In this document: positions 6,907 through 26,503 of the stretch, one piece after another
How positions within the stretch are numbered: the first letter of the stretch is position 1
How the letters are laid out: every line of letters starts with the position of its first letter
Source: a plasmid
Sequence record: NZ_CP031419.1
DNA length: 64,000 nucleotides
Direction: 5' to 3' (one strand)
Position numbers and translations under genes: made by a program
The notes under the pieces: model-generated
Told to the model about the DNA's origin: nothing
Seen by the model: the letters and a program-made list of their open reading frames with translations, nothing else
The model's database searches: none

Positions 6907-7134
6907 GGTAAACCGCGGTTTACCCGGAGTGTCCGTGACTGCTGCCGGTGGCCCGCCGTCTCTGGACCTTCCGTCGGGTCCGACGCATGGAATGCGAGCT
7001 GTTGGCGAAACTTCCCACACAACCTCTTCGGCGAGTAAACCGCGGTTTACCGTATGGCCCCACACCCGGCCATCGGCCACAGGGCGAGAACTTCCCACAC
7101 AAACTTCAATGGGGGTAAACCGCGGTTTACCCCC
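6907..7134. repeat. centromere/res-like cluster: palindrome GTAAACCGCGGTTTAC x3 (6907-6924, 7035-7050, 7111-7134) interleaved with iterons GAAACTTCCCACAC (7007-7020, 7086-7100)
   Basis: perfect 16-bp palindromes, each ~10-18 bp after an iteron; sits between the parB stop and the recombinase gene end. Confidence 0.7.
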
Positions 7135-8077
7135 ACATCGCCAGCACTCGGTCGGCTTCCGCTTCTGCCGCATCGAGCAGGGCTTCGACGTCAGCCATGG
7201 ATTCCACTGCGCGCCGCCGGGCTGCGAGACCATGGTCAAAGTGGTCGTTACCGAGGGGTGGGCACTGGCTCTCGAAGGTGGGGTCATGGACGAGGTCGAC
7301 GCCGTCGTCTCGACGGCGTTTCCGTGGGCGATGGGTTGGCACTCTGCCGAGAATGTGCGCGGCGGTGATTACCCCGATCGAGCCGGGGGTGAGTGGCGAG
7401 GGATCGAGAGCCGGGCTACCGTCCCGGTCGAGGGCAAAGAGCAGCGGGCCTGTGGTGTGGGCCGCAGCGGATATGCGCTCAGGGAGCGTCTCGCGCTCGA
7501 GGTGCTGCTCCAGGAGATAGGTCGCGGTCGGCCGGTGCACGACAGCGAGGACTGCCGCCCAACGTCGGAAAGCGGCGACGGGGCAGATCGCGCGGTCGTC
7601 AGCGGCACGAAGGACTACGAGGGGCCCGGCGCCGATCTCGATGCGGTCCGAGCGGATCGCGACCTCGGATCGGTCAAGTCCTGCGATGAGCGGAAAGGAG
7701 AGGCCGGAGCGGGCTAGGTGGAGCAAGACCGCGTCGCGGCGGCCGAATAGCCCCGCAGGCCAGCCCCAGGTAGGAAGGTTCGGCAGGGCCGCTTCGATTA
7801 GTCCGTGAAGCCGCTCGGTCCTGGCGGCGCGGGCAGGATTCATCAAGTTGCGGACGTATGGTGATCGGCCGGGTGCGGGAAATCCAGCATTGCGGTGCGC
7901 CCAGTTGATGGCACTGAGGCGGCCTCGTTGGGTTGACGGTGCCGCCGGCGCGGACGCCAGGTACTCGCCGACCGCGCTCGGGTCGGCGGGCATCGGCGTA
8001 TGGCCATGCACGGCGCACCAGTCAGCGAAGCGGGAGTAGTCATAGCGGTAGCGCGCGGTGAGGGCATCGCTCACCAT
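7127..8077 (-). CDS. tyrosine-recombinase-like protein (SAM-like N-domain; catalytic motifs not clearly conserved)
   Basis: N-terminus 'YDYSRFADWCAVHGHTPMPADPSAVGEYL' resembles integrase core-binding domain; overlaps the upstream integrase stop by 7 nt. Confidence 0.55.
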   Translation of the reverse strand: MVSDALTARYRYDYSRFADWCAVHGHTPMPADPSAVGEYLASAPAAPSTQRGRLSAINWAHRNAGFPAPGRSPYVRNLMNPARAARTERLHGLIEAALPNLPTWGWPAGLFGRRDAVLLHLARSGLSFPLIAGLDRSEVAIRSDRIEIGAGPLVVLRAADDRAICPVAAFRRWAAVLAVVHRPTATYLLEQHLERETLPERISAAAHTTGPLLFALDRDGSPALDPSPLTPGSIGVITAAHILGRVPTHRPRKRRRDDGVDLVHDPTFESQCPPLGNDHFDHGLAARRRAVESMADVEALLDAAEAEADRVLAMWG

Positions 8078-9321
8078 GGCAGCCGGGTGGCGGCGTTGCC
8101 GACCAGAGGAGCGTGTTCACGGGCATACACCCGGAGCATGGAGACTGACTTGTGTCGGGTTTGGCGCTGGATCTCGTAGTCGCTGGCGCCGAGTCGGTAG
8201 CCCTGCGTAACGAAGCCGCTGCGAAGGGAATGGCCCGCGAATAAGGCTGCGGTCTCTTTGTCGTACCCGACTGCCATTAATCGGCGGCGCAGCATATCGC
8301 CGACGGCTTCGGCCGTCAGCGCGGTAGATGCGATGTTCCCGTGGCGGTCGACCGCACGGAAGGCGGGGTTTCGCGAATTGGTGAGTTCGGGCCAGCGGCC
8401 GCGGCATACGTGCCGCTCGCAGTAGTCGTCGGTCTTGTTCAGCAGCTCCTGCACAGCAATGCGACCGCCGGCGTCGCGCGCTGCCACGAGGTCGAGCCAG
8501 CGCCGCCACGCGCACGGCGGGCATGTTGCGGGCTCGCTGCCCCGTGGGAGTGCGACCACCACTTCCTCTTCCTGCGATCCCTTCGAGATTCGCAGCCGGA
8601 CGTGGAGGCCGTCGAGCCTGTGCGGAGTGATGTCCTCAAGCCAGCGCTCGGTCATCTCCGAGGCACGGAACGCGCCAGTGAACCCCATCAGCAGCAGTGC
8701 GGCGTCGCGGTGGGCGGCGATGCGCTGAGCGTCGTTCACCGCCTGGCGGCGGGCCTGGGTGACGAGCTCGCGCACGTCGTCGACGAGTACCGGTTCGGCG
8801 CGTTTGGGGCGGCGCTCGCCCTTCTCTCGGCAGGCCCTCCGGATGCCGGTCAGTACCTCGGCGACGATCCGTGCCGAGCCCGGATGCGGGTAGCCGGCCG
8901 CCCGGTGGCGGTCCCCGATCGCGGCAACCCATCGGGTGAGGGTCGGCGGAGCGTAGCGGCGTCGTCCTTTGCTATCGCGCAGTACGGCGGCTTCGCTGAT
9001 GTAGAGGGCCACGGTGAGTGGATGGGCGGGCAGCGCCTGGTGCCCCTGCGTAGCGTTCACCGCGCACCAGCGCTCGAACCGCCGCCAGTCCGTCGCGTAG
9101 GAGCGAATCGTGTTGCGGGCCTGGGCGGTGGCGGTGGACTCCCCGATGAGCCGGAGATCCTCGCTTGACAGCGACGGCAGCGGCGCCAATGCCAATTCCG
9201 CGTCGGAGTCCACATCGGCAATTCCAAGAGGCGTCAGCACCTCCCGAATGCGGTCGATCTCCGCGTCGGCCAGCGCCGGTGCTGCCGCCTGGCGGTAGAC
9301 CTCGATCTCCTTGCCGGTCAT
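8071..9321 (-). CDS. tyrosine recombinase / integrase (XerC/D-phage integrase family)
   Basis: box I 'LLLMGFTGAFRASEM', box II 'HSLRSGFVTQ', catalytic Tyr region 'LRVYAREH'; start at ATG 9321 (MTGKEIEVY) or 9363. Confidence 0.85.
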   Translation of the reverse strand: MTGKEIEVYRQAAAPALADAEIDRIREVLTPLGIADVDSDAELALAPLPSLSSEDLRLIGESTATAQARNTIRSYATDWRRFERWCAVNATQGHQALPAHPLTVALYISEAAVLRDSKGRRRYAPPTLTRWVAAIGDRHRAAGYPHPGSARIVAEVLTGIRRACREKGERRPKRAEPVLVDDVRELVTQARRQAVNDAQRIAAHRDAALLLMGFTGAFRASEMTERWLEDITPHRLDGLHVRLRISKGSQEEEVVVALPRGSEPATCPPCAWRRWLDLVAARDAGGRIAVQELLNKTDDYCERHVCRGRWPELTNSRNPAFRAVDRHGNIASTALTAEAVGDMLRRRLMAVGYDKETAALFAGHSLRSGFVTQGYRLGASDYEIQRQTRHKSVSMLRVYAREHAPLVGNAATRLPW

Positions 9322-9410
9322 GTGGAGGAGCTTAGCCGTGTGGGCCGACATCCTCACTGGCACAAAACGTTCTGTGTCGGCGGATTGGAAGAGGCCCCGA
9401 AGTGTCGAGG

Positions 9411-10807
9411 TCAGTCGGTCTGCGCCGTCGTGTTATCCAGGCCAGCGGGCAGCGCGCGTTCGAAGAACCCGTCGTAGACCTCAGCCGGGAGCGTGCCCGA
9501 CACGCGAAGGCATTCGCGGAGCGTGCGTGCGATAGTGCCCCGGCTGAGTTGCAACTCGGGCGAGCGGTCGGCTTCGCCGACGACCTCACCGACCAAGCTT
9601 CGTGCGCGCGCCGGGTTGTGCGCGATGAGCCAGTCCAGGTTCCTGGCGACAGGGCCCGCGATCATGATCCAGTCGCTGGAGGGGCGTAGCCGCTCTCCCC
9701 GCCGCAACTGGTCGCGCAGCGCGTAGAACAGGGTGTCGCGCTGGTTGTCCATGCCCGCGATCCGGTCGAGGTCGTTGACCACGAAGAGCGCGAGATCTCG
9801 GGCGACCGCGGTGACTTGCTCCTTGTTGCGCTGTCCGATGACCCACCAACGCCGTCGTTTCGGGACGCCCCAGAAGTAGTGGGTGTACTCCTCCGTGAGC
9901 CGGTCGAACAGCGCGGCGATTCCGCGTGGCATCGGATTGTCGGGGCTGGTGGCGAGTACCTCCCCGATCCCGGCGGCTGACCGCTCACGGGCTTCGACCC
10001 AGTCGGCGGCGACAGGCCGGGACCACAATGCCCTGCCCCCGAGGACCAATTGAGGGTCGGGCAACAGCCCCTCCCCGCGAGCGCGATATCCGCGCACAGT
10101 GCCCGGCGCCAGTCCCGCCATGGCCGCGAGTTGGGTGGCGTTGATGAGCTGGTCCGCGCGGCCAGTTCGGGGGCATGCAGACTGACCACGCAGTCTTCGA
10201 GAGGGCGGCCGTCGCTGGTCCGCAAGTGCTCCCAGAGCGCGAGATCGTCGAGCCAGTGCGGTGATCCCTCGCTGTCGAGTTGGACATCCTCGACTGAAAG
10301 CAGGCGGCCGCGTCCGGGATCGGCTGGGGCGGACGCCAATTGCTGTGCTGCTGTGACAGTTTCGGCGTTGGCGACTTGCCGAAGGGCGTAGCCGCCGGCG
10401 ACGGTGTCGACCACTTGCCGCGGGCGGTACCAAGATGTGCCGTCCCACCAGTAGCCCCCGGACCGGAACAGCAGCGGCGAGGGTCGGCCTGCGTCCCAGG
10501 CGGCCCAGAGTTCATGGAGGCCCGCAGCGTCCTCATCGCGCACCAGCAAGACGGTGCGCCCGTGGTCGGGATGGTAGTGGATCGACCATGCGAACTCGGG
10601 ACGGCGTGGATCGGTGGTGAACGCCCACCAACGCTGGCCGCCGGTGCTGTAATCGAAGCGGCCCCAGGTCTTTTCGTCACGTCCCCGGCCTACCCCCTCG
10701 ATGTCCTCCGGGTCGTCTACGGGTATGTGAAGGTCGTCTACGAACGGCAACGACGGAACTGGATGATCGGTGCTGAGCCCGTTCGCGAGCGGCACAACTC
10801 CCAACAT
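9411..10807 (-). pseudogene. hypothetical protein with apparent frameshift (frames 9662..10807 and 9411..10448 join near 10145-10155); C-terminal HTH-like segment
   Basis: N-terminal 215 aa of frame A and C-terminal ~245 aa of frame B both look protein-like while the remainder of each frame is low-complexity; junction '…LHAPELAAR|DQLINATQLAAMAGLAPGTVRGY'. Confidence 0.4.
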
Positions 10808-10827
10808 GCTGACCCTCTTTCCTGAGC

Positions 10828-10865
10828 GTTGTAATGGTGCAGCGTAGGCGCTGCACCATTACAAC
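10828..10865. promoter_or_regulatory. perfect 17-bp inverted repeat GTTGTAATGGTGCAGCG-TAGG-CGCTGCACCATTACAAC in divergent intergenic region
   Basis: read directly; lies between the divergent starts at 10807 and 10962, next to motif copy at 10907. Confidence 0.4.
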
Positions 10866-10906
10866 GCAACCACCGCGCTCGGAGCTGCGGACGCCGCCGG
10901 ATTCAG

Positions 10907-10924
10907 ATGTTTTCGATACACTCG
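10907..10924 (+). promoter_or_regulatory. TAGATACA-family motif variant (ATGTTTTcGATACACTCG) ~40 nt upstream of 10962 gene
   Basis: one mismatch to copy at 37071-37088. Confidence 0.4.
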
Positions 10925-10961
10925 AATAACTAGAACTTTCGACAGGAGGAGGTCTGAACCG

Positions 10962-11420
10962 ATGGAACTGGCGACGTATCCCCAGGTGCCGGGGCAGCTG
11001 GCCCTGTGGGAGCCCGAAGTCGAGCAGCCGCCCGCACGGCCGTCACATCCCCACCGGCCGGCCGGACTGCACACCTGCCCCAACCCGGAGTGCGGCTACC
11101 CCGCGAAGGGGGAAAGCGCACGCGGGCGCCTGCGAGAGGACGTGAAGGTCGTCTGGCTCGTACCCGACCCCGACCAGCCGGACACCCCAGCCGAGCGCCG
11201 CTACTGCAACCGCTGTCGCCCGCGGCCACCGCAGCAAATCGCCGATGTCGAGTGCGCGGCCTGCGACCATGGCGGGCCGCTCCTTGTCGGGGCACTCGCG
11301 ATCACGCTGCGCGCCAAGGGGAAAGTCCCCACCGCCGTCCTCACATGGTTGATGGACCAGGGGTGGCGCGAGCAGGAGGGCGGGGGGCTCCTCTGTCCCG
11401 ACCATCCCGCCCACCGATAA
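10962..11420 (+). CDS. Cys-rich hypothetical protein (putative zinc-binding)
   Basis: GGAGGAGG RBS; CPNPECGY…CNRCRP…CAACDHG…CPDHP cysteine clusters. Confidence 0.65.
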   Translation: MELATYPQVPGQLALWEPEVEQPPARPSHPHRPAGLHTCPNPECGYPAKGESARGRLREDVKVVWLVPDPDQPDTPAERRYCNRCRPRPPQQIADVECAACDHGGPLLVGALAITLRAKGKVPTAVLTWLMDQGWREQEGGGLLCPDHPAHR

Positions 11421-11625
11421 ACATCTAGTTATACAGCTATTGCGACTTGAGCATTGATTCTGGCCAGCGCCGAATGCCCCACCGAGCGTGGCGCACGGCT
11501 CGCGGCCCAGATACAGCCGTGCCCCGGGCGGCATGCTCAGCAGAGGCGGACCCGGGGCGTACGGGAACACGGTAGGCGGCCCGAGAACTTCCGGTCAACC
11601 TAATTTTCTAGCTGCGGCCCCGCAA

Positions 11626-11647
11626 TTCAAAACGGCCGTTTTGGAAT
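11626..11647. terminator. palindrome TTCAAAACGGCCGTTTTGGAA between convergent genes (possible bidirectional terminator)
   Basis: perfect 8-bp stem CAAAACGG/CCGTTTTG; related palindromes at 4548-4566 and 21008-21025. Confidence 0.35.
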
Positions 11648-11689
11648 GCCGGGCGACCCGCTGGCCCGCGGCCGGGCGGGACCCCGGGG

Positions 11690-12193
11690 CTATTCGGCGG
11701 ACTGACGCAGGTGCGGGCGGGTCAGGCCCTTCCCGCGCCGCTCATTGAGTATCTCGACGACTCCGCGTGTGCGGTACACGGTGCGGGCCCCGCGGTCCTC
11801 GTGCTCGACCTTCTCGTCGAAGGTCTCGCGATATTGGGTCACGGTCTTGCCGTCGACGCCGAGCAGGCGGGCGATGGCGCCGAGGGTACGGAACTCGTCG
11901 GGCCCGTCGGGCATGAGGAAGGGAGCCGGCCGGTTGGCGGCTTCCCAGCGCTCGGCGAAGGCGTCGAGTTCGTCGGAGTCGTACTCCGGGGCGGGGGTGC
12001 CTTTGCCGGTGCGCGGGCGGGGTTGCTTCGGGGCCGGGAAGTCGTCGCGACCGGTCCAGTTGTTGCGGATCGAGCCATAGCTGCGGCCGCGCTGTTCGGC
12101 CCATTCCTTCAACGTGATCAGGGTTCCCACGCCCTCATTGTGGTCGGAGGCAGCTCCGGCGTGGTGGTCGGCTGTCGGCGCGGTGGGGATCAT
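11690..12193 (-). CDS. hypothetical protein, HTH-like segment
   Basis: 167-aa ORF; 'FRTLGAIARLLGVDGKTVTQYR' HTH-like; leader box copy G 90 nt upstream. Confidence 0.55.
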   Translation of the reverse strand: MIPTAPTADHHAGAASDHNEGVGTLITLKEWAEQRGRSYGSIRNNWTGRDDFPAPKQPRPRTGKGTPAPEYDSDELDAFAERWEAANRPAPFLMPDGPDEFRTLGAIARLLGVDGKTVTQYRETFDEKVEHEDRGARTVYRTRGVVEILNERRGKGLTRPHLRQSAE

Positions 12194-12289
12194 CGTCGCT
12201 TCTTCTCTCTCGCGGTGGCGGGGTGTCGAAGTGTCGAATCAGGGCGATTCGCTTGCTAAGCTTGGCGATGCCCTTCTTTTGCGAGTGGG

Positions 12290-12330
12290 GCACTTTCGGG
12301 CGGCCTGGCGTGTCCGAGCTGCGGTCTTCG
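12290..12330 (-). promoter_or_regulatory. leader box copy G (TGCGAGTGGG + GTGTCCG loop region)
   Basis: shares CCCCACTCGCA box (coding orientation) with copies A-F. Confidence 0.4.
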
Positions 12331-12364
12331 CGACCGAGGCTTCGCCGGCCGCCCGAGCCATGTC

Positions 12365-13096
12365 CTAGGAGCCCTCCAGGAACGCCGTGAGCGCCGCTGC
12401 GGCGGCGATGCTGGGTTCGGGCTCCCCGGCGTGCGGCCAGTCCTCCACGTGCAAGCTCAGGTCATCCCAGAGCTTTCGGGCTTCGGCGATCAGCACGGCC
12501 CGGTCGATACCGGTGCGGCCGTTCACCCACTCGGCCAAGTTCGGGCAATAGTGCTCCCCGGCCCAACCCTCGGCGATGGCCCTGGCCTCGTACGCGGTGA
12601 TCACGGTGTCGAAGCTGCCGTCGGTGTAGATGCGCTGGGCGACCGCTTCGTAGACGCTGGGCACCGTTTCAGTGGTTTGCCAGACACGCACCTCGGTGGT
12701 GAAGGTCAGCACGTCACCGGGCATCTCCTCGTCGCGACGGTCGAGCCAGAACGGTGCCACCTCGGCTCTGGGGACACTGGTCAGGCTTTCGCGGTCGATG
12801 CACTTGTTGCCGTACATGCCGGAGGTGCCGGTGTAGTCGATGCTCCCATCGGGATCGAGAATGAAGCCGTAATCGGGGTCGTCCCCGCAGGCGAACAACT
12901 CGCCGCTGTAGGCAGTGACCCACAAACGGGAGCGGTACCCGCCGGGGTGAACGAGGATATCGCCGGTCCAGGGGCTGGTGGGCCCGGCCGCACGGGCCAC
13001 GACGCCGCGGCGAGCGCGGGCCTCATCGGCGGTGGTCCAGCGGGAGCGGTCGAACATCGTGAATGGCATCGGAGGAAGTCCTTCCGGAGAAGTCAT
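12365..13096 (-). CDS. hypothetical protein downstream of the Dcm methyltransferase
   Basis: C-terminal ~240 aa of track ORF 12365..14440 is protein-like; starts at 13096 or 13069 (in-frame ATGs); N-terminal remainder of the track ORF is antisense artefact. Confidence 0.5.
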   Translation of the reverse strand: MTSPEGLPPMPFTMFDRSRWTTADEARARRGVVARAAGPTSPWTGDILVHPGGYRSRLWVTAYSGELFACGDDPDYGFILDPDGSIDYTGTSGMYGNKCIDRESLTSVPRAEVAPFWLDRRDEEMPGDVLTFTTEVRVWQTTETVPSVYEAVAQRIYTDGSFDTVITAYEARAIAEGWAGEHYCPNLAEWVNGRTGIDRAVLIAEARKLWDDLSLHVEDWPHAGEPEPSIAAAAALTAFLEGS

Positions 13097-13194
13097 GGGG
13101 GCCAGGGGTTTCAATCGCGGATGGGGTTGCGGGAGTGGACGAGAAAGGAAGGGCCAGGGAGGGGGCCCGGTGTGCGGGCCCCCTCCCTGGTGGA

Positions 13195-14874
13195 TCACGC
13201 CGCCGGGGTGTAGCGGTCGAGCTCTTCGCCGGTGATGGCCTCCACCAGCGCAGAGATCAAAATCTCGGCAGCGGGCGGGGTGACGGCGTTGCCGAGCTGG
13301 CGCACCCGTTGGCGCTTGTTGCCGAGCACGATGTAGTCCTTGCGGAACGCCATCGCGTCCTGGATCTCGTGCGGCTCCAACATGCGGAACCGAGTGTTCT
13401 CGATGTCGCGCTCGGTGATCATGTCGACCAGAGCGAACCGGTCGCGGGTGCTGACCGTGCCCAGCGGTTCGGTGGCGGGCCGGGCGGTGCCGGTGCTGTA
13501 GTAGGGCAGCAGCAGCGTGTTCCACAGCTCGGGCGACATCCCGGCGGGCGGCGTGACCAGGCCGTGGTGATTGCCGCTGGCGGTGACGGTGGCCAGGGCC
13601 TCGGTCACCGGACGCGCGTCCGAGGAACCGCCGCGCAGCTCGGCGACGAAGGGGAGGAACGCCACCGCCGTCTCGTTGCGGGTGGTCTGGGTGCGCAGCG
13701 GCATCGAGGCCAGCTGGGCTTCCTTGCCGTCGCGACCCTCCATCGGAATCATCAGCGGCGGCGGCACGACCAGGCCGTGGTTGGAGCCGTCGGCAACGAC
13801 CGTGGCGAGGGGTTCGTTCAGCCCGATCGTGCGGGGGCGGTCCGAGCGCAGCAGCGCCAGGAACGGCTGCGGGATCGCGAGCCCGTCGTTCTCCCGGGTG
13901 GTGCGGGCGGCCATGGGCCCTGTGACCTGGGTGGCGTCGTCGCGCCAGGTTCCCCCGGCGGGGACCATCATCGGCATCATCGAGGCGTAGCGGCGCATCC
14001 CGACGCGAATGCGTTCCATGGTCTTGGGAGCCAGAGGCTTGTCCCGGTCGCCGATGCGGGTGCCCGGCAGGGTCCAGTCGATCGCGGCGGCCGCCGGGAG
14101 CGCGGGCGGCTCCACGATCGAGTTGCGGCAGCTGACGCGAGGGCAGCGGTACACGTACTGGGTGCGGTAGCGCCCCATGTCGGCATTGGGCTTCTTGAAG
14201 ACCTGGAGGGCGCTCACCCACTCGTCGCAGGCCAGGCAGTACGACAACGGGCGGAGCCACTTGTTCCAGTCGGGCTCGCGGCCGAGCTTGAGATCCCAGT
14301 AGGCGACGTAGAGCCGGTCCCGGGACTGCGGGGCCGCCGGAGTGCGAACCGGCTGGGCATGGCTGGAGTTGAGGGCGATGACCTTGACCCCGTAGCCCAG
14401 GGCCCGGATCTCGCCGATCCAGCGGTTCCACTGGTCCCACTGACGGACCTCGACCACGTTCTCCACGACCCCGGCGCGGACCCGGCCACCGCGCTCGATC
14501 ACGCCGCGCAGGTACATCGGGACCTCTTCCATCAGCGCCCTGCTGCGGTCGGCTTCCTCATCGCGCTGAAGGTCGAGGAGGTCACCTTGGAGGGTGTTGT
14601 CGTAGTCGCGCTTCTTGCCGCGCGCCGAGGACCACTGCGGGCACTCCGGCGAGGCCCAGAAGATATCGGCCACAGGCCATTTCACGATCTGTTCTTTGGC
14701 CTCTTCGGTGCTCAGGTCTCCGAGGAAGTGATCGGCCTCGGGGTAGTTGGTGGCATGGGTCTCGATGGCCTTCGACCAGTGGTTCGCCGCGCGGGTGACG
14801 CGCACACCGGGCACCTTCGATGCGCCCTGAGTGGAGCCGCCAGCGCCGCAGAACCAATCCATCAATTCGAGCAT
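13195..14874 (-). CDS. DNA (cytosine-5)-methyltransferase with enlarged, internally repeated target-recognition region (multispecific-type)
   Basis: motif I 'FCGAGG', PC-like 'SPECPQWS', ENV 'VVENVVEV', motif IX/X 'RMLEPHEIQDAMAFRKDY…QLGNAV'; three repeats 'EPLATVVADGSNHGLVVPP / EALATVTASGNHHGLVTPP / EPLGTVSTRDRFALV'. Confidence 0.85.
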   Translation of the reverse strand: MLELMDWFCGAGGSTQGASKVPGVRVTRAANHWSKAIETHATNYPEADHFLGDLSTEEAKEQIVKWPVADIFWASPECPQWSSARGKKRDYDNTLQGDLLDLQRDEEADRSRALMEEVPMYLRGVIERGGRVRAGVVENVVEVRQWDQWNRWIGEIRALGYGVKVIALNSSHAQPVRTPAAPQSRDRLYVAYWDLKLGREPDWNKWLRPLSYCLACDEWVSALQVFKKPNADMGRYRTQYVYRCPRVSCRNSIVEPPALPAAAAIDWTLPGTRIGDRDKPLAPKTMERIRVGMRRYASMMPMMVPAGGTWRDDATQVTGPMAARTTRENDGLAIPQPFLALLRSDRPRTIGLNEPLATVVADGSNHGLVVPPPLMIPMEGRDGKEAQLASMPLRTQTTRNETAVAFLPFVAELRGGSSDARPVTEALATVTASGNHHGLVTPPAGMSPELWNTLLLPYYSTGTARPATEPLGTVSTRDRFALVDMITERDIENTRFRMLEPHEIQDAMAFRKDYIVLGNKRQRVRQLGNAVTPPAAEILISALVEAITGEELDRYTPAA

Positions 14875-14895
14875 GGGAATCGTCCCTTCGTGATT

Positions 14896-14978
14896 TGCGA
14901 GTGGGTCGAAGAAGGCGGGGTGTCCGGTCCCGCTTCCTTCTATGTCATATATTACCCGTTAAAGTTGATCGAGGTCAA
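14896..14978 (-). promoter_or_regulatory. promoter-leader cassette A: -35 TTGACC, 18 nt, -10 TAATAT, stem-loop (loop GTGTCCGGT), box CCCACTCGCA, RBS, start of Dcm gene
   Basis: read on minus strand; near-identical cassettes at 21807-21888 and 26524-26606. Confidence 0.6.
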
Positions 14979-15082
14979 GAACTTTCTTGACGTGTCTTTT
15001 ATCGAAATTATCTGTGCGGCAACAGCTTTCGATTCTCCTGCCGACCTGGGGATCGGGGCCGCAAACGCTACCGATACAATGG

Positions 15083-15097
15083 ATGTTTTAGATACAC
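15083..15097 (+). promoter_or_regulatory. TTTAGATACA motif copy 2 (ATGTTTTAGATACAC)
   Basis: identical 16-mer GGATGTTTTAGATACA also at 38979-38994; upstream of 15311 gene. Confidence 0.5.
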
Positions 15098-15310
15098 TGG
15101 AAGTGTTCGAAAAGTGCCCGCTCCCCGCGTTCGCCCACGTCAACGGAGCCGGAAGGGCTCGACAACGGCGTCGGGCCCAGCGGCGAACCCGCGAGCAGAC
15201 ACCGATCACACGAGAACCGCTGAGCGCTCGCGCGTCTCGGACCGGCCGCATACGTCGGAACGAGGTGGAAGACTTGCGGGCGAACGAGGCGTGGCCGACG
15301 CAACCGAACG

Positions 15311-16255
15311 ATGGAGCAGCCGATGACCGATGCCAGATCCGACCCCGCCGCACCCGAGGCGAGCCTCGGGGACCTCCAGGCCGAGGCGATCACCCTGCTC
15401 ACCCGCGTCTCGAGGATGCAGCGCTCCCGTCCGGCGGCGAACGGCGCTGCGGCCGCCCGCGCGACCGATCCGATCGACTTCGCCGAATTCGTCACCCAGG
15501 TGATGGCCGGAGTGGCCGCCAACCGGGGCGGCGTCGCCGTGCTGGCCGGTCGGCCCGGCAGCTGGGAGGCCGACAAACTGCGCGACATGCTCTACAGCAC
15601 CGTCGGCGAGGACGAATGGGCGCTGGCCGAGCACCGCACCGAACCCGTGGTGATCCCGCTCGCGATCGAGGAAGTCCTGATCGACGCCGGGGAGCCCGAG
15701 GAATACGAACCCGAGGACCGCGCCCAGGAGATCGTCCGGCGCGCCCAGACCGCCGGCCTCAGCGTGGACGAATGGCTGACCCGCTGGAACGGCCGCGAAC
15801 CGGTCTTCACCCGATGGCGGCCGTTGATGAAGCCCGAGGACCACTACGACGAGCAGGTCAACGCGGTCGAGAACCGCCACGACGATGCCTACACCGCCCT
15901 CGAGGCCCGCTACCCCGAGGACACCGACTACAGCGTCTACGCCGCCGAGGCCGAGCAGCTCGACGCGCAGCGTGACGCCGAACTCGCCGCGCTGCGGGAG
16001 CGGTGGCGTCGGCGCTACCAGCGCTACGCCACCGCATTCGAGGCGGCCGTGCGGGCCAAGGCCGACGAGCTCGGGGTGCGGGTACCGCTCGAAGTCCAGG
16101 TCGAGACGGACCCGGACCGAACCTGGGACGCCCGCCAGAACATCGCTCCCGGCTGGGCCGACGCCGACCGGCTCGCCGTCCGCCTGTACGAGCACGCCCG
16201 CGAAGTCACCCCCACCGCCCTTCTGACCACCGACGAGCCCGACACCGAAGGCTGA
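15311..16255 (+). CDS. hypothetical acidic protein
   Basis: 314-aa ORF, protein-like composition; start may be second ATG at 15323. Confidence 0.55.
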   Translation: MEQPMTDARSDPAAPEASLGDLQAEAITLLTRVSRMQRSRPAANGAAAARATDPIDFAEFVTQVMAGVAANRGGVAVLAGRPGSWEADKLRDMLYSTVGEDEWALAEHRTEPVVIPLAIEEVLIDAGEPEEYEPEDRAQEIVRRAQTAGLSVDEWLTRWNGREPVFTRWRPLMKPEDHYDEQVNAVENRHDDAYTALEARYPEDTDYSVYAAEAEQLDAQRDAELAALRERWRRRYQRYATAFEAAVRAKADELGVRVPLEVQVETDPDRTWDARQNIAPGWADADRLAVRLYEHAREVTPTALLTTDEPDTEG

Positions 16256-16261
16256 GGCCCC

Positions 16262-16579
16262 ATGACCGCCGAGAGCGCCCCCAAAACCCCACCGGCACAG
16301 CGGGTTCTGACCGTCGGGCAGATCCGCGAAGCCCTTGCACAGTTCCCCGACGATCTCCCGCTGATGGTGTGCGTTCCCGTCGACGACGACACCTACGAAA
16401 GCTACGGAGTCACGATGGGCCCCTACCACCAGCGGGCTGACTGGGGCGACGGGCTCGGCCCGGTCGCTGACGAACGCTACGTCGCCATCGACGCCATGGC
16501 GTACTTCCTTGCTCTGCGAGAGGAGCTGGAGATCACCTCCGCCGACTCGGTCGCATCCGAGCAGGAGGCCGGACTGTGA
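16262..16579 (+). CDS. hypothetical protein
   Basis: 105-aa ORF 7 nt after previous stop. Confidence 0.45.
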   Translation: MTAESAPKTPPAQRVLTVGQIREALAQFPDDLPLMVCVPVDDDTYESYGVTMGPYHQRADWGDGLGPVADERYVAIDAMAYFLALREELEITSADSVASEQEAGL

Positions 16580-17019
16580 GCACACCCCGGAACCCGTCGA
16601 GTCGCGAAACCGCCACCACCGGAAGGGAACTCGTCAAGTACGAGCCCTACCTTGAGCTCGTCTCGCGGCTGTGGTTCGCGGCGGCCGTGAACCCGAACCG
16701 CCTCGCCGAGAAGATCGCGAGAACGACCCGCTTGAGCCGCAGCAGCTCGGTCATTTTCGTCGACGAACCGGTGACCTGGGAGACGCTGCCGCAGCGGCTC
16801 GCCGAGCGCCGACGCGACTACGCCGGGTACTTCGCGTCCCTGCCCCCGGTGGAGGCCGCCGCCTCTCGGCGGGGCTTGCTCCAGCGGCCCACGCCGGAGA
16901 TGGAGGCTACCGTCGCGGAGGCCGCCGCGCGGGTCTTCGCGCGGAGACAACAACCCGGCCCGGCTCAAAAATCCCAGCGCGCCAACGACACCCACGCATC
17001 CGAGGGGGAACACCGATGA
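16576..17019 (+). CDS. hypothetical protein
   Basis: GTGA/ATGA-type overlap with neighbours. Confidence 0.45.
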   Translation: MSTPRNPSSRETATTGRELVKYEPYLELVSRLWFAAAVNPNRLAEKIARTTRLSRSSSVIFVDEPVTWETLPQRLAERRRDYAGYFASLPPVEAAASRRGLLQRPTPEMEATVAEAAARVFARRQQPGPAQKSQRANDTHASEGEHR

Positions 17020-17267
17020 AGGATCTCACCGCGACCGACCGACGCTTGGGCGAGGCCCTGGCCCAGCGTGACGAGGCGGCCCTGTCCAAGGTGGCCGACG
17101 AATTCGCCGCCGCCGGGCTGCCCGCCATGGCGCAGCTGTTGCGCGACCGCGGGACCGCAGGCGCAGCAGGGTTGCTGTCGGGGTTGACCGGGTGGTCGGT
17201 TCCGTCGGCGCACGGAGTCCGCCATCACCGTCACGGTGACGTAACTCCCGAGGGTCGTAGGTCGTGA
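17016..17267 (+). CDS. hypothetical protein
   Basis: ATGA overlap with upstream gene; 83 aa. Confidence 0.35.
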   Translation: MKDLTATDRRLGEALAQRDEAALSKVADEFAAAGLPAMAQLLRDRGTAGAAGLLSGLTGWSVPSAHGVRHHRHGDVTPEGRRS

Positions 17268-17527
17268 CGGAGTCATGGCACTGTGAAGCGTACGGACCCG
17301 AAGGTGTCGAAGTCGGGGCCCGGTGTTTCGTCGCGGGCGAGCTGCACGAGCGGGTCTGCACCGATCCGGGCGTGTGTCACCGGACGATGGTGGCAGAACG
17401 CCAGAGGGTTTTCCGGCGGATGAACGAGTTGGCCGCCGGTGGGTCGCCGTGGGCGGCCGACTTGGCGCAGGAGTTCGCCAGCCCCGAGCGGATTCTCGGC
17501 GGCACGGACGAAGACCCCAGTTCCTGA
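17264..17527 (+). CDS. hypothetical Cys-containing small protein
   Basis: GTGA overlap; 87 aa. Confidence 0.35.
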   Translation: MTESWHCEAYGPEGVEVGARCFVAGELHERVCTDPGVCHRTMVAERQRVFRRMNELAAGGSPWAADLAQEFASPERILGGTDEDPSS

Positions 17528-17786
17528 TTCGGCCGTGGCCACGCGTGTGGGATGCCGCGTCTTTGGCATACTGGCTGCGGGCCGTGGCGGGCGGCCCTAC
17601 GGCCTGCTGATGCAGCGGGAGACCCCGTTGAAGAAGCGTATCGCTCCACCCGCCCACTAACATTGATGCCCTGCTGACGCTGATATGGAGCTGAACTGGG
17701 CAAATGCGGTTCTGGCTCCGGATAACTGCCATTATCCGGAGTGACACCAAAAAACACTACGGTGAGATACCCCCGCGCGGAGCACC

Positions 17787-17800
17787 TTTAGATACATTAG
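17787..17800 (+). promoter_or_regulatory. TTTAGATACATTAG motif copy 3
   Basis: ~100 nt upstream of 17897 start. Confidence 0.5.
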
Positions 17801-17896
17801 AATAAATGGGCATGGCGGGAGCGCGATACCCGCGTCCACCAGCGGCGAACGCCGCCGGAGGAGATGACCCAGAGCGACGGGGGAGAGGGGAAACCG

Positions 17897-18796
17897 ATGA
17901 CCAAGGCAAACGACCCGGCGGTAGCGGCGGACGCGGAAGGCTGGCGGCTCGATCCGGTGCGCCTGGACTGGGATACGGTCCTCCTCCGCGATCCCGCATA
18001 CCGTGATCCTGCCGAACTGCTGTTCGCGGGCAAAACGATGGGGATCGGCGGAATTGCCGCTCTGGTCGGCGTACCCGTCACCGCCTTCCTGGCCCTGCTG
18101 ACGGACTGGGCCTCGTGGTGGTGGTGCATTCTCGCCGCAGGCATCCTTATCGTATCCGGGCTGTCGACCGCAGCGATCGGAGCGGCCTTGGATCAGCGGC
18201 AGATGGAGAAGGCCACGCTGACCGGGGCAAGGCTGAAGGTATTGCCGCCGGCCCTCTGCCGTCCGCTGGCCCGCGCGATTCTTGCCATCGAGGACATCAA
18301 GTCCGGCCGGGCATTTCGCGAGAAGTATCTGGGCGAGCTGGAGCTGAGCGCAACGGCCTGGCAGATGGCGCAAACAGCGCTGCGCGGAGGAGAACTGGTG
18401 GCGGCGCGGACCGAGCTGCTCGACGCCGAAGAAGGAGTCATCTCGCCCGCCGACCGTGTTGCGGCCGAAGCCGCGCAGCGGACGGTCGACGAGCTGGTCG
18501 AGGGCCTGGAGCGTGACGCCGAAGCCCTGGCCACCGCAGCGGCATCGGCCCGGACGCTGTCAACGGCGCTGGAGGACACGGAGGCGCGCGCACTGGCGGA
18601 AACCGAGCGGGAACGAATCTCCCGCCAGCAGCTCGCGCGCCGACACCGGCTCGACGCGGCGCTCGCTGCGGTCCGCACCGCCGACGAGGCCAATTCCCCT
18701 GACACCGCAGATCTCGCGGTCGCCCGCGCCGCCGCCTACGCCGAAGTCATGCAGCTCGGTGGGACACCTACCCCCGGCCTGGTACAGCCGGACTGA
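17897..18796 (+). CDS. membrane protein (two predicted TM helices) with long coiled-coil-like tail
   Basis: hydrophobic segments 'GIGGIAALVGVPVTAFLALL' and 'WWWCILAAGILIVSGLSTAAIGAAL'; RBS GGGGAGAGGGG before ATG 17897 (track start 17864). Confidence 0.55.
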   Translation: MTKANDPAVAADAEGWRLDPVRLDWDTVLLRDPAYRDPAELLFAGKTMGIGGIAALVGVPVTAFLALLTDWASWWWCILAAGILIVSGLSTAAIGAALDQRQMEKATLTGARLKVLPPALCRPLARAILAIEDIKSGRAFREKYLGELELSATAWQMAQTALRGGELVAARTELLDAEEGVISPADRVAAEAAQRTVDELVEGLERDAEALATAAASARTLSTALEDTEARALAETERERISRQQLARRHRLDAALAAVRTADEANSPDTADLAVARAAAYAEVMQLGGTPTPGLVQPD

Positions 18797-18816
18797 CGCT
18801 CAGGAACCCCACCGGT

Positions 18817-19011
18817 TCAGGCCGCGGTAATCTCGAACAGGGTCAGCGCCGCGCTGTTAGCGTGTTGTTCGGCACGCTCCTTCACAGCACAGGTTGGGCC
18901 GATCCCCGCGCTCACCGAAGCCGCCGAAAGCAGCCAGCCGTGGCAGCGGCGGCAGTGCACGACGAGCCGCACCGTCGGCTGTTCCTGGTCATCGGTCTCG
19001 GTCGCGGCCAT
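18817..19011 (-). CDS. small zinc-ribbon protein (CxxC…C)
   Basis: GGAGGAGAG RBS 7 nt before ATG 19011; 'VHCRRCHGW…GIGPTCAV'. Confidence 0.45.
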   Translation of the reverse strand: MAATETDDQEQPTVRLVVHCRRCHGWLLSAASVSAGIGPTCAVKERAEQHANSAALTLFEITAA

Positions 19012-19150
19012 GTTCGATCTCTCCTCCGGCCGGGTGGGTCTCTCCCAGGGTGACACAAGTGACCGACAACTCCGGCACGGTAGGGACGGCAAGGTTTTGG
19101 GTCGTTCCGTCCCGCAGAGCATGGGGCAGCCGGGCCCGACTTAAGGGAGG

Positions 19151-19747
19151 TCAGACCGGCAGGGGGTCGATGCGGTCGGCGGCGTAGTGGTAGAGCCGCC
19201 AGACCGATTTCGAGAGCAGCTCCCGGTCGGCGCAGCACACGGTCGCCAGGGCCGGACGGCCGTCCTTGGTGGTGGGGTAGCGGCCCTGGTCGCCGTTGCG
19301 GTCGTGGCGTTCGAGGTCGCGGACGAAGGCAACGATGTCGCGCTCGGTCTCCCCAGTGCCGAGCAGCGGATCACCGGCCGCGGCGAGGGCGTCGAGGAAT
19401 GCGGTGAGAACGTGGCTCGACCTCAGCGCGGGGATGCCGGAGTAGGCCGGATACAGCGCCTTGAGCGACAACTCGGCGAGCTGACGCGACAGGAAGAACG
19501 CCGGCTGCGCGGCCCCGGCGTCGATGGCGGCTTGGGCGGCCGAGGCGAATTCGAACAGCGTCGTCGAGGGCGCGTTGATCGGATGCTCGCGGGACATGCA
19601 GAGCACGTCGTCTCGGCTGTCGTGGTCGACCGTGGGGTCGCCGAACGGACTGATGTAGGCCACGGACGGGAATTCTGCTCCCCGATCCGGGGCGGGGGAA
19701 GCGGTTTTCGCGGCCCGTGCTGAGGCGGTCCGCGCCGTCTCCGGCAC
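19151..19747 (-). CDS. hypothetical protein
   Basis: 198-aa ORF with protein-like composition. Confidence 0.5.
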   Translation of the reverse strand: MPETARTASARAAKTASPAPDRGAEFPSVAYISPFGDPTVDHDSRDDVLCMSREHPINAPSTTLFEFASAAQAAIDAGAAQPAFFLSRQLAELSLKALYPAYSGIPALRSSHVLTAFLDALAAAGDPLLGTGETERDIVAFVRDLERHDRNGDQGRYPTTKDGRPALATVCCADRELLSKSVWRLYHYAADRIDPLPV

Positions 19748-19760
19748 GCGGCCGTGCTTG

Positions 19761-20075
19761 TCAGAGATCGAACCGGACGGCGAGCACCATCTTGATGAAG
19801 TCGAGCATCTCGGTAGTCACCGTCCCGTCGTAGGTTCCGGCCTCGAGTACCGCTCGCACGCAGGGAATGAACCGGTGTACGGCGAGCACGCGGCCCTCGT
19901 CCCAGCCCACCGAGAAGATTCGCAGGTCTTGCGGCATCTCCCGGGCGTCGACGACCGGCACCGCCAGCGCCACATCACGATGGCGCAGCAACGCCTGGCC
20001 GTCGACGATCACCACGGTCAGATAGCCGTCACCGGCGGCGATGGTGTAGATGTCGCCCTGGTGCAGTTCCCTCAC
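19761..20075 (-). CDS. MazF/PemK-family-like type II toxin
   Basis: 104 aa; 'GDIYTI…', 'VALAVPVV' and C-terminal 'DGTVTTEMLDFIKMVLAV' align with MazF/PemK blocks; 4-nt overlap with upstream antitoxin. Confidence 0.55.
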   Translation of the reverse strand: MRELHQGDIYTIAAGDGYLTVVIVDGQALLRHRDVALAVPVVDAREMPQDLRIFSVGWDEGRVLAVHRFIPCVRAVLEAGTYDGTVTTEMLDFIKMVLAVRFDL

Positions 20076-21806: not shown

Positions 21807-21888
21807 GTGCGAGTGGGGGATGAAGGGGCGGGGTGTCCGGTCCCGCCGCCTTCTGTGTCATATATTACCCGTTATCTGGAATGAGTCA
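21807..21888 (-). promoter_or_regulatory. promoter-leader cassette B (-35 TTGACT, 16 nt, -10 TAATAT, stem-loop, CCCCCACTCGCA box)
   Basis: see cassette A. Confidence 0.6.
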
Positions 21889-23549: not shown

Positions 23550-24167
23550 TCAGCGCGCCGTGTCCGGTTCGGCGTCGGTGCCGCCCGCGACGAGAGAGCG
23601 CGGGCGAAAGTCGCGCGCGAACCGGTCGGTGAGCTGCGCCAGCAGCGCGAGCAATTGGTCGCGGGGAACGTCGACCGACTGGAAGGACCCGCCGAAGCGC
23701 ACCGCGTCGGCGTCCGGGGCGATGGTGAGCCGTTCCCGGCCGTCGCCGAGGTCGGTGACCTCGAGCCGGTCGCCGTCGGCGTCTTCGAAGACGGTGTGCG
23801 GCATGACGCGGATGCTGTCGGGCAGGCCCGCCGGGCGGACGCCGTGGCGCAGCAGGGCGACGGTCTCGGGCGTCAGCGCGCTCGCGGTGCGCAGCCGGAG
23901 TTCGAGTTCGCCGTCGTCGCTGTAGGCGATCAGCCGCCCGTCGAGGTCGTAGAAGTCGAGCCAGAGCCCGAACTCGTCGGCGCGGTCGGTGGCCGCGCCG
24001 ACGGCCAGCCCGTTGGCCAGCAGCCCGCGAATGATCCAGCCGGTCGGCCCGAGCGGGGTCACCTGGGCGGAGTCGACGCTGTAGCGGTCGATGAGGTCGA
24101 GCTCGTCGCGGAACGGGGTGTCCAGCACCGAGGACCACGCCCGCGCGTCCTGGTCTTTGCGCGACAT
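23550..24167 (-). CDS. hypothetical protein
   Basis: ATG 24167 overlapping stop of upstream gene by 1 nt; 205 aa. Confidence 0.5.
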   Translation of the reverse strand: MSRKDQDARAWSSVLDTPFRDELDLIDRYSVDSAQVTPLGPTGWIIRGLLANGLAVGAATDRADEFGLWLDFYDLDGRLIAYSDDGELELRLRTASALTPETVALLRHGVRPAGLPDSIRVMPHTVFEDADGDRLEVTDLGDGRERLTIAPDADAVRFGGSFQSVDVPRDQLLALLAQLTDRFARDFRPRSLVAGGTDAEPDTAR

Positions 24168-24826
24168 CACGCCCGCCCCTCGTCGGTCAGCGAGGCCCAC
24201 CAGCCGTCGACGAGGCCGTGCGCTGTCCAGTCCGCGAGCTGGGCGTGCGCGCAATCGCGGTGTGCGACCACCGCCGCGGCGCGCTCGATCGGGTAGCAGT
24301 GCGAATGCGTCGAGCAGCCCTGAGTCCAACCGGGTACGTCCTCGTCGAGCACGATGACGTTCGTAGGGACCAAGCCGTCGGAGGTGAGCGGGCCGAGCAG
24401 AGTGGCTTCCCGGTCCGGGTCGCCGAGCGCGGCGGCGGGCAGCATCGCGAAATCCCAGCGCCGGGAAGAGGACAGGACTGCGACGCGGACCGGATCGTGC
24501 AGCAGCGCGGCGGCGGCCTGCACGGCGGCCACGGCGGTGTAGCCGTAGCAGAAGATCTCGAGCGGGGTGCCGTCGAGACGGGAGTAGACCGAGGCGCACC
24601 ACTCGGTGCTAGCGGCGATTTCGTCCGCGCCGAGCGCCAGGCCGTCGCCGTTGCACACGAGCATCTCCAGCGGGATGCCCCGGACTTCGCCGACGGGAAT
24701 GTAGATGTTCACGTGGCCGACGACGCGGACCTGCGCGTCGTAACCGAGTTCGGTCAGCGCGGTCAACTCAGGTGCGTAGCGCACCTGTGCCTCGGCGACG
24801 AGAGCGTCGAATTTGGTGGAGGGCAT
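24167..24826 (-). CDS. hypothetical protein
   Basis: 219-aa ORF preceded by leader copy C. Confidence 0.5.
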   Translation of the reverse strand: MPSTKFDALVAEAQVRYAPELTALTELGYDAQVRVVGHVNIYIPVGEVRGIPLEMLVCNGDGLALGADEIAASTEWCASVYSRLDGTPLEIFCYGYTAVAAVQAAAALLHDPVRVAVLSSSRRWDFAMLPAAALGDPDREATLLGPLTSDGLVPTNVIVLDEDVPGWTQGCSTHSHCYPIERAAAVVAHRDCAHAQLADWTAHGLVDGWWASLTDEGRA

Positions 24827-24849
24827 TGCCCTGCTCCCTTCGGGGGATT

Positions 24850-24895
24850 TGCGAGTGGGGATCGAAGGGGGCGGGGTGTCCGGTCCCGCCCGGCT
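24850..24895 (-). promoter_or_regulatory. leader copy C (TGCGAGTGGGG + stem-loop GGGGGCGGGGTGTCCGGTCCCGCCC; no -10/-35)
   Basis: sequence identity with cassettes A/B/D leader. Confidence 0.5.
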
Positions 24896-26092: not shown

Positions 26093-26503
26093 TCAGAAGG
26101 GTGCTTCGTCGTCGCCCCACGGGGCGCTTGAGTCACCGCGCCCGTCGGCGGGCTCGTCGTCCTCGTCGTCGGGGTTCCAGTCGTCGGGGACGCCGTCGGC
26201 CCACACCACTGCCTTGGCGTTGTGGTCCCAGGTGACGTTGGCGAGGGCCTGCACGTTCTCCAGCGAGGCGTCGTCTTCGACGCGAACGCCCGCCGGGATG
26301 TGCCACAGGTCGCCCCGGAAGTCCCAGGCCGACCCGCTGCGCTGGGCCGAGGAGCTGACTTCCTCGGCCGCCCAGGCGCGGGCGTCGGCCTCGGTGACGA
26401 ATTCCTTCTCGTCGAGGGAGCGTCGCTCGGACGCGGGCGGGACGTCGGAGAAGACGACGTAGAAGCGATCGTGGTCCGCGACCACTGCTGCCAGAGGACT
26501 CAT
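26093..26503 (-). CDS. hypothetical acidic protein
   Basis: 136 aa, D/E-rich C-terminus; preceded by cassette D. Confidence 0.5.
   Translation of the reverse strand: MSPLAAVVADHDRFYVVFSDVPPASERRSLDEKEFVTEADARAWAAEEVSSSAQRSGSAWDFRGDLWHIPAGVRVEDDASLENVQALANVTWDHNAKAVVWADGVPDDWNPDDEDDEPADGRGDSSAPWGDDEAPF

Follow-up and report, generated by a model that had tools for sequence, protein, structure and literature searches.

The plasmid sequence NZ_CP031419.1 includes a 64,000-nucleotide (nt) stretch, the whole of which is referred to below as the window, and this stretch carries at positions 13195 to 14874 of its minus strand a complete gene for an orphan, plasmid-borne C5-cytosine DNA methyltransferase. 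The source is a mobilizable Nocardia plasmid of ~140 to 185 kb. The gene was recognized from the list of open reading frames (ORFs), from matches to PF00145 and phrog_116, and from structural comparison with Foldseek; it starts with ATG and encodes 559 amino acids (aa). Its GC content at third codon positions (GC3) is 0.89 in a window of ~68% GC, and its coding signal is the strongest in the neighborhood. As judged from its sequence, the product is an S-adenosylmethionine (SAM)-dependent DNA cytosine-5 methyltransferase with an intact core, and the region between its motifs VIII and IX holds a tandem array of repeated units that may act as a modular recognition array.

The original prediction, a model's note made from the sequence without database searches, had also called the product a C5-cytosine methyltransferase, and the profile searches bear this out. 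The protein scores 67.6 bits against the Pfam family PF00145 (C-5 cytosine DNA methylase), above the gathering score of 22 that serves as its cutoff, and it matches the phage “DNA methyltransferase” family phrog_116 over residues 1 to 551 with an E value of 1e-49; the conserved motifs point the same way. A Nocardia cyriacigeorgica “DNA cytosine methyltransferase” (P0001) is 99% identical to it. A word-indexed search returned more than 4,700 homologs, and clustering of the family at 50% identity gives at least 778 clusters with E values of ≤1e-30. These homologs are spread over actinobacterial plasmids, integrative and conjugative elements (ICEs), prophages, and actinophages, and 330 phage records, mostly from Gordonia, Mycobacterium, and Arthrobacter phages, contain full-length homologs with ~44% identity. 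The databases already list the gene and its relatives, under the name DNA cytosine methyltransferase or DNA methylase, and the novelty in this respect is modest.

Catalytic core and cysteine-rich insert

The protein begins with motifs I to VIII (aa 1 to 195), followed by a four-cysteine (Cys4) insert and a helix (aa ~196 to 297), the repeat units (aa 301 to 483), and motifs IX and X. Read from the sequence, motifs I, VI, VIII, IX, and X stand in the canonical order. The SAM-binding loop of motif I (DWFCGAGG; aa 6 to 13, positions 14836 to 14859, minus strand, as for all of the segments given below within the gene) has F8, G10, G12, and G13 conserved in at least 90% of 143 diverse homologs. Motif IV (SPECPQWS; aa 75 to 82, 14629 to 14652) contains the catalytic Cys78, which aligns to the PPC of PDB entry 3g7u. 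Motif VI is ENV (aa 138 to 140, 14455 to 14463), and motif VIII is QSRDR (aa 183 to 187, 14314 to 14328), in which Q183, R185, and D186 are at least 90% conserved. Motif IX, RMLEPHEIQDAMAFRKDY (RMLEPHE..., aa 497 to 514), and motif X, GNAVTPP (aa 528 to 534), together occupy positions 13273 to 13386 and fall within the region matched by TIGR00675. Across the same 143 homologs, the family alignment has C78, E138, N139, R187, R497, and G528 as invariant residues.

The claim that all of the conserved 5-methylcytosine (m5C) methyltransferase motifs are present stands for motifs I, IV, VI, VIII, IX, and X, with the reservation that in motif IV the catalytic Cys is preceded by Glu and not by Pro. 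Within the family, motif IV has the consensus SPxC, with ASPEC in 168 of 230 apparently full-length homologs and A, I, S, V, or G as the other residues found at x. The conserved Pro of this motif sits two residues before the catalytic Cys across the family.

AlphaFold2 (AF2) models were built from an alignment of 19 sequences, which gave a predicted local distance difference test (pLDDT) score of 52, and from the alignment of 143 sequences, in which the catalytic core reaches a pLDDT of >90. In Foldseek searches, the AF2 model matches M.HaeIII, M.HhaI, DNMT1, and MET1 with E values of 1e-11 to 1e-15. The modeled fold is that of a class I methyltransferase with the C5-methyltransferase topology.

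Between motif VIII and the repeat array lies the Cys4 insert, with the pattern CxxC...CxxxxC formed by C213, C216, C244, and C249 (aa 213 to 249, 14128 to 14238). C213 is invariant and the other three cysteines are at least 90% conserved in the family alignments, and the regular expression C..C...C...C is found in 155 of the 230 homologs. Because the four cysteines are conserved and the segment is confidently modeled as a small beta module (short beta-strands with a pLDDT of >90), we infer a zinc-ribbon-like element that would bind metal. Classical bacterial C5-methyltransferases are not known to have a zinc ribbon of this sort, which might bind DNA or act as a scaffold on which the array is held. 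The module is followed by a conserved IDW...IGDR segment and then by the helix PLAxKTxxRI (aa 283 to 297).

The repeat array and its variation across the family

The span from motif VIII to motif IX measures ~305 aa, longer than the variable region of ~250 aa given in the original prediction, and is made up of ~100 aa of conserved insert (the Cys4 module and the helix) and ~185 aa of repeat array. The array consists of five tandem units of ~36 aa (U1 to U5, aa 301 to 483). Within every unit, a hydrophobic strand, a loop rich in Gly, a PLxTxT(T/A) core of the TL type, and a closing xH(G)LV strand can be distinguished, and the TL-type core PxxT(V/Q/R)(T/V/S) is present in all five. The TL motif is a conserved element of the target recognition domains (TRDs) of C5-methyltransferases that is located 10 to 50 aa before motif IX, and Trautner and colleagues used it to define and swap the TRDs of multispecific enzymes (PMC2413257).

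A hidden Markov model (HMM) of the repeat, constructed from the units and refined by iteration over 271 proteins of the family (consensus PFLVPYRGRGGGRARPVTEPLPTQTTRDHHGLVVP), detects all five units with independent E values (i-E) of 1e-10 to 1e-17. U1 (PMMVPAGGTWRDDATQVTGPMAARTTRENDGLAIP; aa 301 to 335, 13870 to 13974; i-E, 1.3e-13) belongs to type W of the classification described below. U2 (PFLALLRSDRPRTIGLNEPLATVVADGSNHGLVVPP; aa 337 to 372, 13759 to 13866; i-E, 1.5e-10) is of type S and is optional in the family. It is followed by U3, of type E (PLMIPMEGRDGKEAQLASMPLRTQTTRNETAVAFLP; aa 373 to 408, 13651 to 13758; i-E, 2.4e-13), and by U4, of type R (PFVAELRGGSSDARPVTEALATVTASGNHHGLVTPP; aa 408 to 443, 13546 to 13653; i-E, 1.2e-16). 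The last and constant unit, U5 (LLLPYYSTGTARPATEPLGTVSTRDRFALV; aa 454 to 483, 13426 to 13515; i-E, 9e-12), is of type Y and occupies the TL position ~12 aa before motif IX; its T474-V475 pair sits 23 residues before R497. U1 to U4 abut one another, and a gap of 10 aa precedes U5.

The note had proposed three TRD-like repeats. The repeats are real and far above chance expectation, and their number is five: two copies, PMAARTTRENDGLAIP and MPLRTQTTRNETAVAFLP, had been overlooked. The unit that it described, (E)PL(A/G)TV...GSNHGLV(V/T)PP, fits U2 and U4, the only units with the complete ...G(S)N(H)HGLV.PP ending, and the copy counted as the third, EPLGTVSTRDRFALV, is of a different subtype. In Smith-Waterman comparisons against 1,000 shuffles, the z-score is highest for U2 and U4 (14.8), followed by U1 and U3 (7.2), U4 and U5 (4.9), and U3 and U5 (3.6). 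The duplication that links U2 and U4 persists in the DNA, where 61 nt are 74% identical at an offset of 213 nt, or 71 codons. This pattern of z-scores suggests an old duplication of a two-unit block ([U1-U2]/[U3-U4]) plus a fifth unit.

Comparison with relatives indicates that the units are gained and lost whole. In an alignment of 19 homologs with 65 to 93% identity, the length differences are insertions or deletions of entire units: exactly U2 is absent from five proteins (P0028, P0070, P0095, P0107, and P0120), and three others (P0044, P0071, and P0108) have one or two additional units. Additional kinds of unit in other members include “ERRPGVRTWPVDEPLTTQTTTATKAVAVPP” and “MRNN...EPxRxLTTAGHQSLV.” Such whole-unit differences occur between proteins that align at 66 to 77% identity. 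Each of the 230 homologs has between 1 and 8 units, most often 5, and 57% of the 909 unit junctions in the family have no more than one linker residue. The order of units is swapped between P0071 and P0108, and in the protein of phage Malibo the Y unit precedes M. The alignment of the Nocardia protein with mycobacteriophage Dori gp72 extends over the entire length at 44% identity, and precisely the W unit is missing from gp72. The E type (U3) is conserved in the homologs from both of these phages, and the R type (U4) is also conserved in phage homologs. At the lower end of the range, P0161 (419 aa) has a complete core and just one unit, which is of the U5 type.

Simple regular expressions on the loop signatures were used to assign the units to types W, S, E, R, M, Y, and P. 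Each of these seven recurrent types has a conserved consensus of its own over 27 to 214 nonidentical examples, including at positions outside the defining signature; for example, the consensus is ...AGGTWR..A....PmptRTTREnD for W, EGRdGKea.....PlRTQTaRnET for E, and LRSgR.R.....epLATvVADGsNH for S. The signatures distinguish 123 unit architectures, a count that is only indicative because 408 of the 1,310 units are left unclassified by this typing.

Plasmid setting and neighboring genes

The part of the window from 8000 to 20000 has ~90 to 92% DNA identity with the N. cyriacigeorgica plasmid p_unnamed and with Nocardia farcinica plasmids, including pNF1. Near the methyltransferase region, the annotation of the related plasmids includes genes for ParA/ParB, two tyrosine recombinases, and a MOBP relaxase, and the window itself encodes a MobA/VirD2 relaxase. 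Other family members are found in a prophage-like early region of Streptomyces (with WhiB, RecE-like, and RNase T genes), in an integrative element of Streptosporangium (with Prim-Pol, excisionase, and integrase genes), in a Nocardia ICE (with SSB and TrwC genes), and in phage early regions. In the five other genomic contexts compared, there was no conserved neighbor and no restriction nuclease, and the only nuclease genes were of the phage HNH homing type.

Downstream of the methyltransferase gene, a genus-restricted ORF of unassigned function (12365 to 13096, minus strand, 243 aa), considered here as context only, has no domain match. The original prediction saw no nuclease motifs in this ORF and proposed a search for restriction endonuclease or Vsr motifs; the ORF has no match in Pfam, PHROGs, NCBIfam, PADLOC, or PDB. 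Its homologs form two clusters in a set of 5.8 billion proteins, both from Nocardia, and are encoded on four Nocardia plasmids. In the sister plasmid L001 (NZ_CP026745.1), a 325-aa gene with no domain match separates its counterpart from the methyltransferase gene. The ORF was therefore rejected as a restriction endonuclease or a Vsr protein, given its Nocardia-only distribution and the broken linkage in the sister plasmid. No nuclease domain was found among the ORFs scanned over ~7.1 to 23.5 kb of the window. Membership in a defense system was likewise rejected: PADLOC gave only generic DrmMII, DruM, and MTase_II matches, and no DISARM or Druantia partners are nearby. The lack of a conserved nuclease neighbor, the lack of defense partners, and the unconserved downstream linkage indicate that the methyltransferase is an orphan of mobile elements. 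The earlier claim that no cognate restriction enzyme is recognizable thus agrees with the searches of databases and neighboring contexts, and by its sequence and surroundings the methyltransferase is an orphan.

The methyltransferase gene is preceded by a 5′ leader (14875 to 14960, minus strand) that is repeated elsewhere in the window. In order, it comprises a TAATATAT box rich in AT, an imperfect hairpin of 12 bp whose loop, ACCGGACAC, is invariant, a box reading ACTCGCA, and a GAAGGGA site that resembles a ribosome-binding site and precedes the start codon. The span directly upstream of the methyltransferase start is ~85 nt, and the conserved leader is ~60 to 100 nt. Copies are found at 26532 to 26587 (100% identity over 56 nt), 21827 to 21874 (94%), and 24846 to 24889 (91%), and these precede the minus-strand ORFs 26093 to 26503, 21138 to ~21803, and 24167 to 24826. 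The leader has no Rfam match, and its folding z-score of −1.0 is not significant. It is probably a shared promoter/operator or 5′ untranslated region of a coregulated set of plasmid genes that includes the methyltransferase gene.

The surroundings of the methyltransferase gene are mosaic. Positions 9380 to 10898 and 15185 to 17010 of the window have no counterpart in L001, which instead has a gene for a CPBP protease, different small ORFs, and the additional 325-aa gene; its methyltransferase gene is 94% identical to that of the window. Two adjacent, slightly overlapping genes resembling tyrosine recombinase genes (7127 to 8116 and 8071 to 9363, both on the minus strand) encode products with ~27% mutual identity. 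This pair adjoins the parAB locus of the sister plasmid, and a weak Phage_integrase match is confined to the second gene. Three small ORFs, 18817 to 19122 (minus strand), 19151 to 19816 (minus strand), and 16262 to 16579 (plus strand), match DUF6011 (E value, 3e-10), weakly a HEPN-like domain (E value, 0.003), and DUF6225 (E value, 8e-7), respectively, and the DUF6011 genes recur on several Nocardia plasmids.

Farther away, a 2,459-aa ORF (38969 to 46348, plus strand) joins a class I methyltransferase domain (Methyltransf_25) to an SNF2-like helicase (ResIII and Helicase_C). It resembles the giant methylase-helicase proteins that occur on conjugative plasmids and ICEs, and it would represent a second potential DNA modification or antirestriction function on the plasmid. 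A gene for an HD and HD_assoc (dGTPase-like) protein (47618 to 49075) is found ~670 nt from that of a GT4 glycosyltransferase (49742 to 51145; together 47618 to 51145, minus strand), which also matches the Pfam family “GT4-conflict” (glycosyltransferase in conflict systems); the two may form a defense or counterdefense pair. Toward the far end of the window (57194 to 62259, minus strand), a 981-aa protein with a C-terminal FGE-sulfatase domain adjoins a B12-binding radical SAM enzyme, and these may belong to a peptide modification or small biosynthetic cluster.

Target recognition and comparison with known methyltransferases

Taken as a whole, the locus may be read as encoding an orphan plasmid C5-methyltransferase that serves in antirestriction and carries a modular recognition array, a reading that we place slightly short of an even chance. 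By established C5-methyltransferase chemistry, Cys78 would attack C6 of the flipped-out cytosine, Glu138 of the ENV motif would protonate N3, and the methyl group of SAM would be transferred to C5, with the target being read in the major groove by the repeat array and the zinc-ribbon insert. The enzyme would premethylate the plasmid DNA and, incidentally, the host chromosome. From context and precedent, a plasmid modified in this way would survive m5C-sensitive type II restriction on moving between actinobacterial hosts; semispecific orphan methyltransferases serve mobile elements as antirestriction devices (PMC12707154).

How the array would read DNA is less certain. By analogy, its units could be alternative TRDs that give the enzyme more than one target sequence, in which case relatives with 1 to 8 units would differ in the number of their targets. 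We favor this idea tentatively, as one that is somewhat more doubtful than the overall reading, because the units are individually dispensable, can be reordered, and are conserved by type and because their arrangement mirrors that of proven multispecific enzymes. A broader proposal is that the homologs make up a large, uncharacterized actinobacterial family of modular multispecific m5C methyltransferases in which TL-type cassettes of ~36 aa, of at least seven types, are shuffled to give 1 to 8 specificities; this is more doubtful still, and the computed evidence for it is suggestive only.

Several observations weigh against the proposal of an active enzyme with independent recognition units. 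For the core, motif IV lacks the canonical Pro-Cys dipeptide, with Glu preceding the catalytic Cys (SPEC rather than (P/F)PC), and the stricter NCBIfam dcm model TIGR00675 gives a score of 55.3, under its cutoff of 100.65, with a matched span of aa 478 to 540; because of these two features, methyltransferase activity is argued from conservation. For the array, close relatives share a backbone of W-E-R-Y units in conserved order, to which P, S, R′, and M units are optional additions. The Y unit is the last one in 142 of the 230 homologs and ends ~12 residues before motif IX; one composite domain into which further units are optionally inserted would also give this pattern. The TL cores of U2 and U4 differ very little, and the array has a pLDDT of only 25 to 67 in the AF2 model, which thus gives no structural support for independent modules. 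The Nocardia units are weakly related to those of the Bacillus phage enzymes in hhalign (probability, 16%; P = 0.0015), with the TL cores in register, and a search of all PDB sequences with a profile of 61 units gave no TRD of a methyltransferase, only chance matches with E values of ≥0.04. The mapped Bacillus TRDs are reportedly contiguous, without linkers, and 38 to 54 aa each (Trautner et al., 1996), and the Nocardia units, at 30 to 36 aa, are shorter than this. Finally, methylation data for any family member were not found in the literature.

An alternative that is almost as likely as multiple specificities is that the five units are structural beta-hairpin repeats that form one enlarged composite TRD with a single target, possibly a long or degenerate one. 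The Y unit would then take the canonical TL position and the other units would add backbone or base contacts, so that gain or loss of a unit would tune affinity or site length and not add specificities. The shortness of the units, the conserved W-E-R-Y order with Y usually at the end, and the near identity of the U2 and U4 cores make this plausible. Furthermore, the top Foldseek matches, DNMT1 and MET1, are enzymes with one very large TRD, and we also count in its favor M.HhaI (1MHT), in which a single TRD of ~80 aa needs two recognition loops. However, whole units are dispensable and can be reordered between proteins with 66 to 77% identity, and single-unit enzymes exist, which one would not usually expect of an obligate single fold; the loop residues are also conserved separately within each unit type. 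If the array is one composite domain, the protein is an orphan methyltransferase of the ordinary kind whose TRD is unusual in being built from repeats.

It is very unlikely that the protein lacks activity as a DNA m5C methyltransferase, whether because it is degenerate, because it acts on another substrate (RNA or only single-stranded DNA), or because it is a DNA-binding regulator. The noncanonical SPEC motif and the low TIGR00675 score would fit such a role, but the catalytic residues are all invariant in the 143 homologs, purifying selection acts on this large family in phages and plasmids, and E, A, I, S, V, and G interchange freely in the position before the Cys, which suggests that the residue there is tolerated. 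Least likely of all is an ordinary type II restriction-modification system whose endonuclease is ORF 12365 to 13096 or another neighbor: the ORF is on the same strand, 98 nt downstream of the methyltransferase gene, and restriction endonucleases evolve fast and often have no database matches, so that null searches leave room, but its two Nocardia clusters and four plasmids stand against more than 4,700 methyltransferase homologs, the 325-aa gene intervenes in the sister plasmid, and the five other contexts have no conserved neighbor or nuclease domain apart from the phage HNH homing-type genes.

If the units are independent cassettes, multispecific cytosine methylation would be widespread among actinobacterial mobile elements, well beyond a few Bacillus phages, and would help explain the passage of plasmids and phages through restriction barriers as dense and GC rich as those of Nocardia, Streptomyces, and Mycobacterium. 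It would amount to a combinatorial antirestriction toolkit that is much larger and more plastic than the known Bacillus phage enzymes. In addition, the family would be a source of dozens of compact DNA-reading modules of natural origin, which could serve to engineer the specificity of methyltransferases and to premethylate DNA for the transformation of refractory actinomycetes. We found no description in the literature of a modular TL-unit array with 1 to 8 copies or of a large actinobacterial multispecific family, and nothing relevant on a characterized family member or actinophage m5C methyltransferase.

Among known systems, the multispecific enzymes M.SPRI, M.Phi3TI, M.Rho11sI, and M.H2I are a handful of Bacillus phage proteins known since the 1980s, and M.phiBssHII is another. 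The original prediction had likened the Nocardia protein to multispecific enzymes of this kind, and comparison with SPR, rho11s, and H2 upholds the likeness in architecture, with direct homology between the units being weak. Like the enzymes of the SPR/Phi3T/Rho11s/H2 type, the protein is encoded by a mobile element, has no restriction enzyme, and has a core of the PF00145 family in which a long variable region separates motif VIII from motif IX. As in SPR, rho11s, and H2, this region consists of similar modules arranged head to tail around a T(L/I/V)(T/S) core, variable in number and with a constant last unit before motif IX. The variable region of SPR has three TL-core modules in tandem (...GLSPTITTNKGEG..., ...AVSHTLSAS..., and ...EPAFTVNTIDRHGVAV), and those of rho11s and H2 have four each; three rho11s modules are mutually similar (z-scores of 5.5 to 10), and the last module is constant among SPR, rho11s, and H2. 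In BLASTP comparisons, U5 and motifs IX and X align with the last unit of SPR (EPAFTVNTIDRHGVAV) and its motifs IX and X (E value, 0.011), and the catalytic cores of the two proteins align with 25% identity (E value, 7e-4). The unit HMM matches only the constant last unit of SPR, rho11s, and H2 (i-E, ~0.01). The strict published TL consensus, applied as a regular expression, has no match in the Nocardia methyltransferase, SPR, rho11s, or H2; because the three phage enzymes are also unmatched, it is too narrow to serve as a test.

The differences from the Bacillus phage enzymes are also clear. Identity is ~25% and is confined to the core, the units are weakly homologous to the Bacillus TRDs, and a specificity for each unit would be assigned by analogy. 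Compared with the Bacillus phage TRDs, the Nocardia units are shorter, at ~36 aa, and resemble one another more closely, and there are more of them, with 5 in this protein and as many as 8 in relatives. Furthermore, the Nocardia protein has the additional Cys4 insert, the SPxC form of motif IV, and a host from the Actinomycetota.

Much closer are the actinophage “DNA methylase” proteins, such as Dori gp72 and gp65 of Gordonia phage Malibo (phrog_116), which are full-length homologs with ~44% identity and run, as the Nocardia protein does, from the core through the Cys4 insert and the array of units to motifs IX and X. Units of the E, R, and Y types occur in these proteins as well as in the Nocardia protein. 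The phage proteins differ in that they are encoded by early-region genes and have 4 or 5 units of partly different type and order, with Dori lacking W and Malibo having M after Y. No published specificity for these actinophage proteins was found in the literature, and their annotation is by homology only.

Among monospecific bacterial enzymes of solved structure, M.HhaI, M.HaeIII, and the methyltransferase of the Escherichia coli prophage CP-933R (3G7U) have the catalytic fold and the motif order in common with the Nocardia protein, along with one TL element ~20 aa before motif IX; in M.HhaI, this element is Thr250-Leu251, ~22 residues before motif IX. In contrast to the Nocardia protein, each has only one TRD (~80 aa), neither a tandem array nor a Cys4 insert, and a motif IV with the canonical Pro-Cys dipeptide, and most such enzymes belong to restriction-modification pairs. 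The fusions of SNF2 helicase and methyltransferase and the other orphan methyltransferases of conjugative plasmids resemble the protein in their plasmid setting and in their presumed role of evading the restriction systems of the recipient. However, these proteins have a different, unrelated methyltransferase domain, which in the fusion encoded in the window is Methyltransf_25, and no TL-type TRD array.

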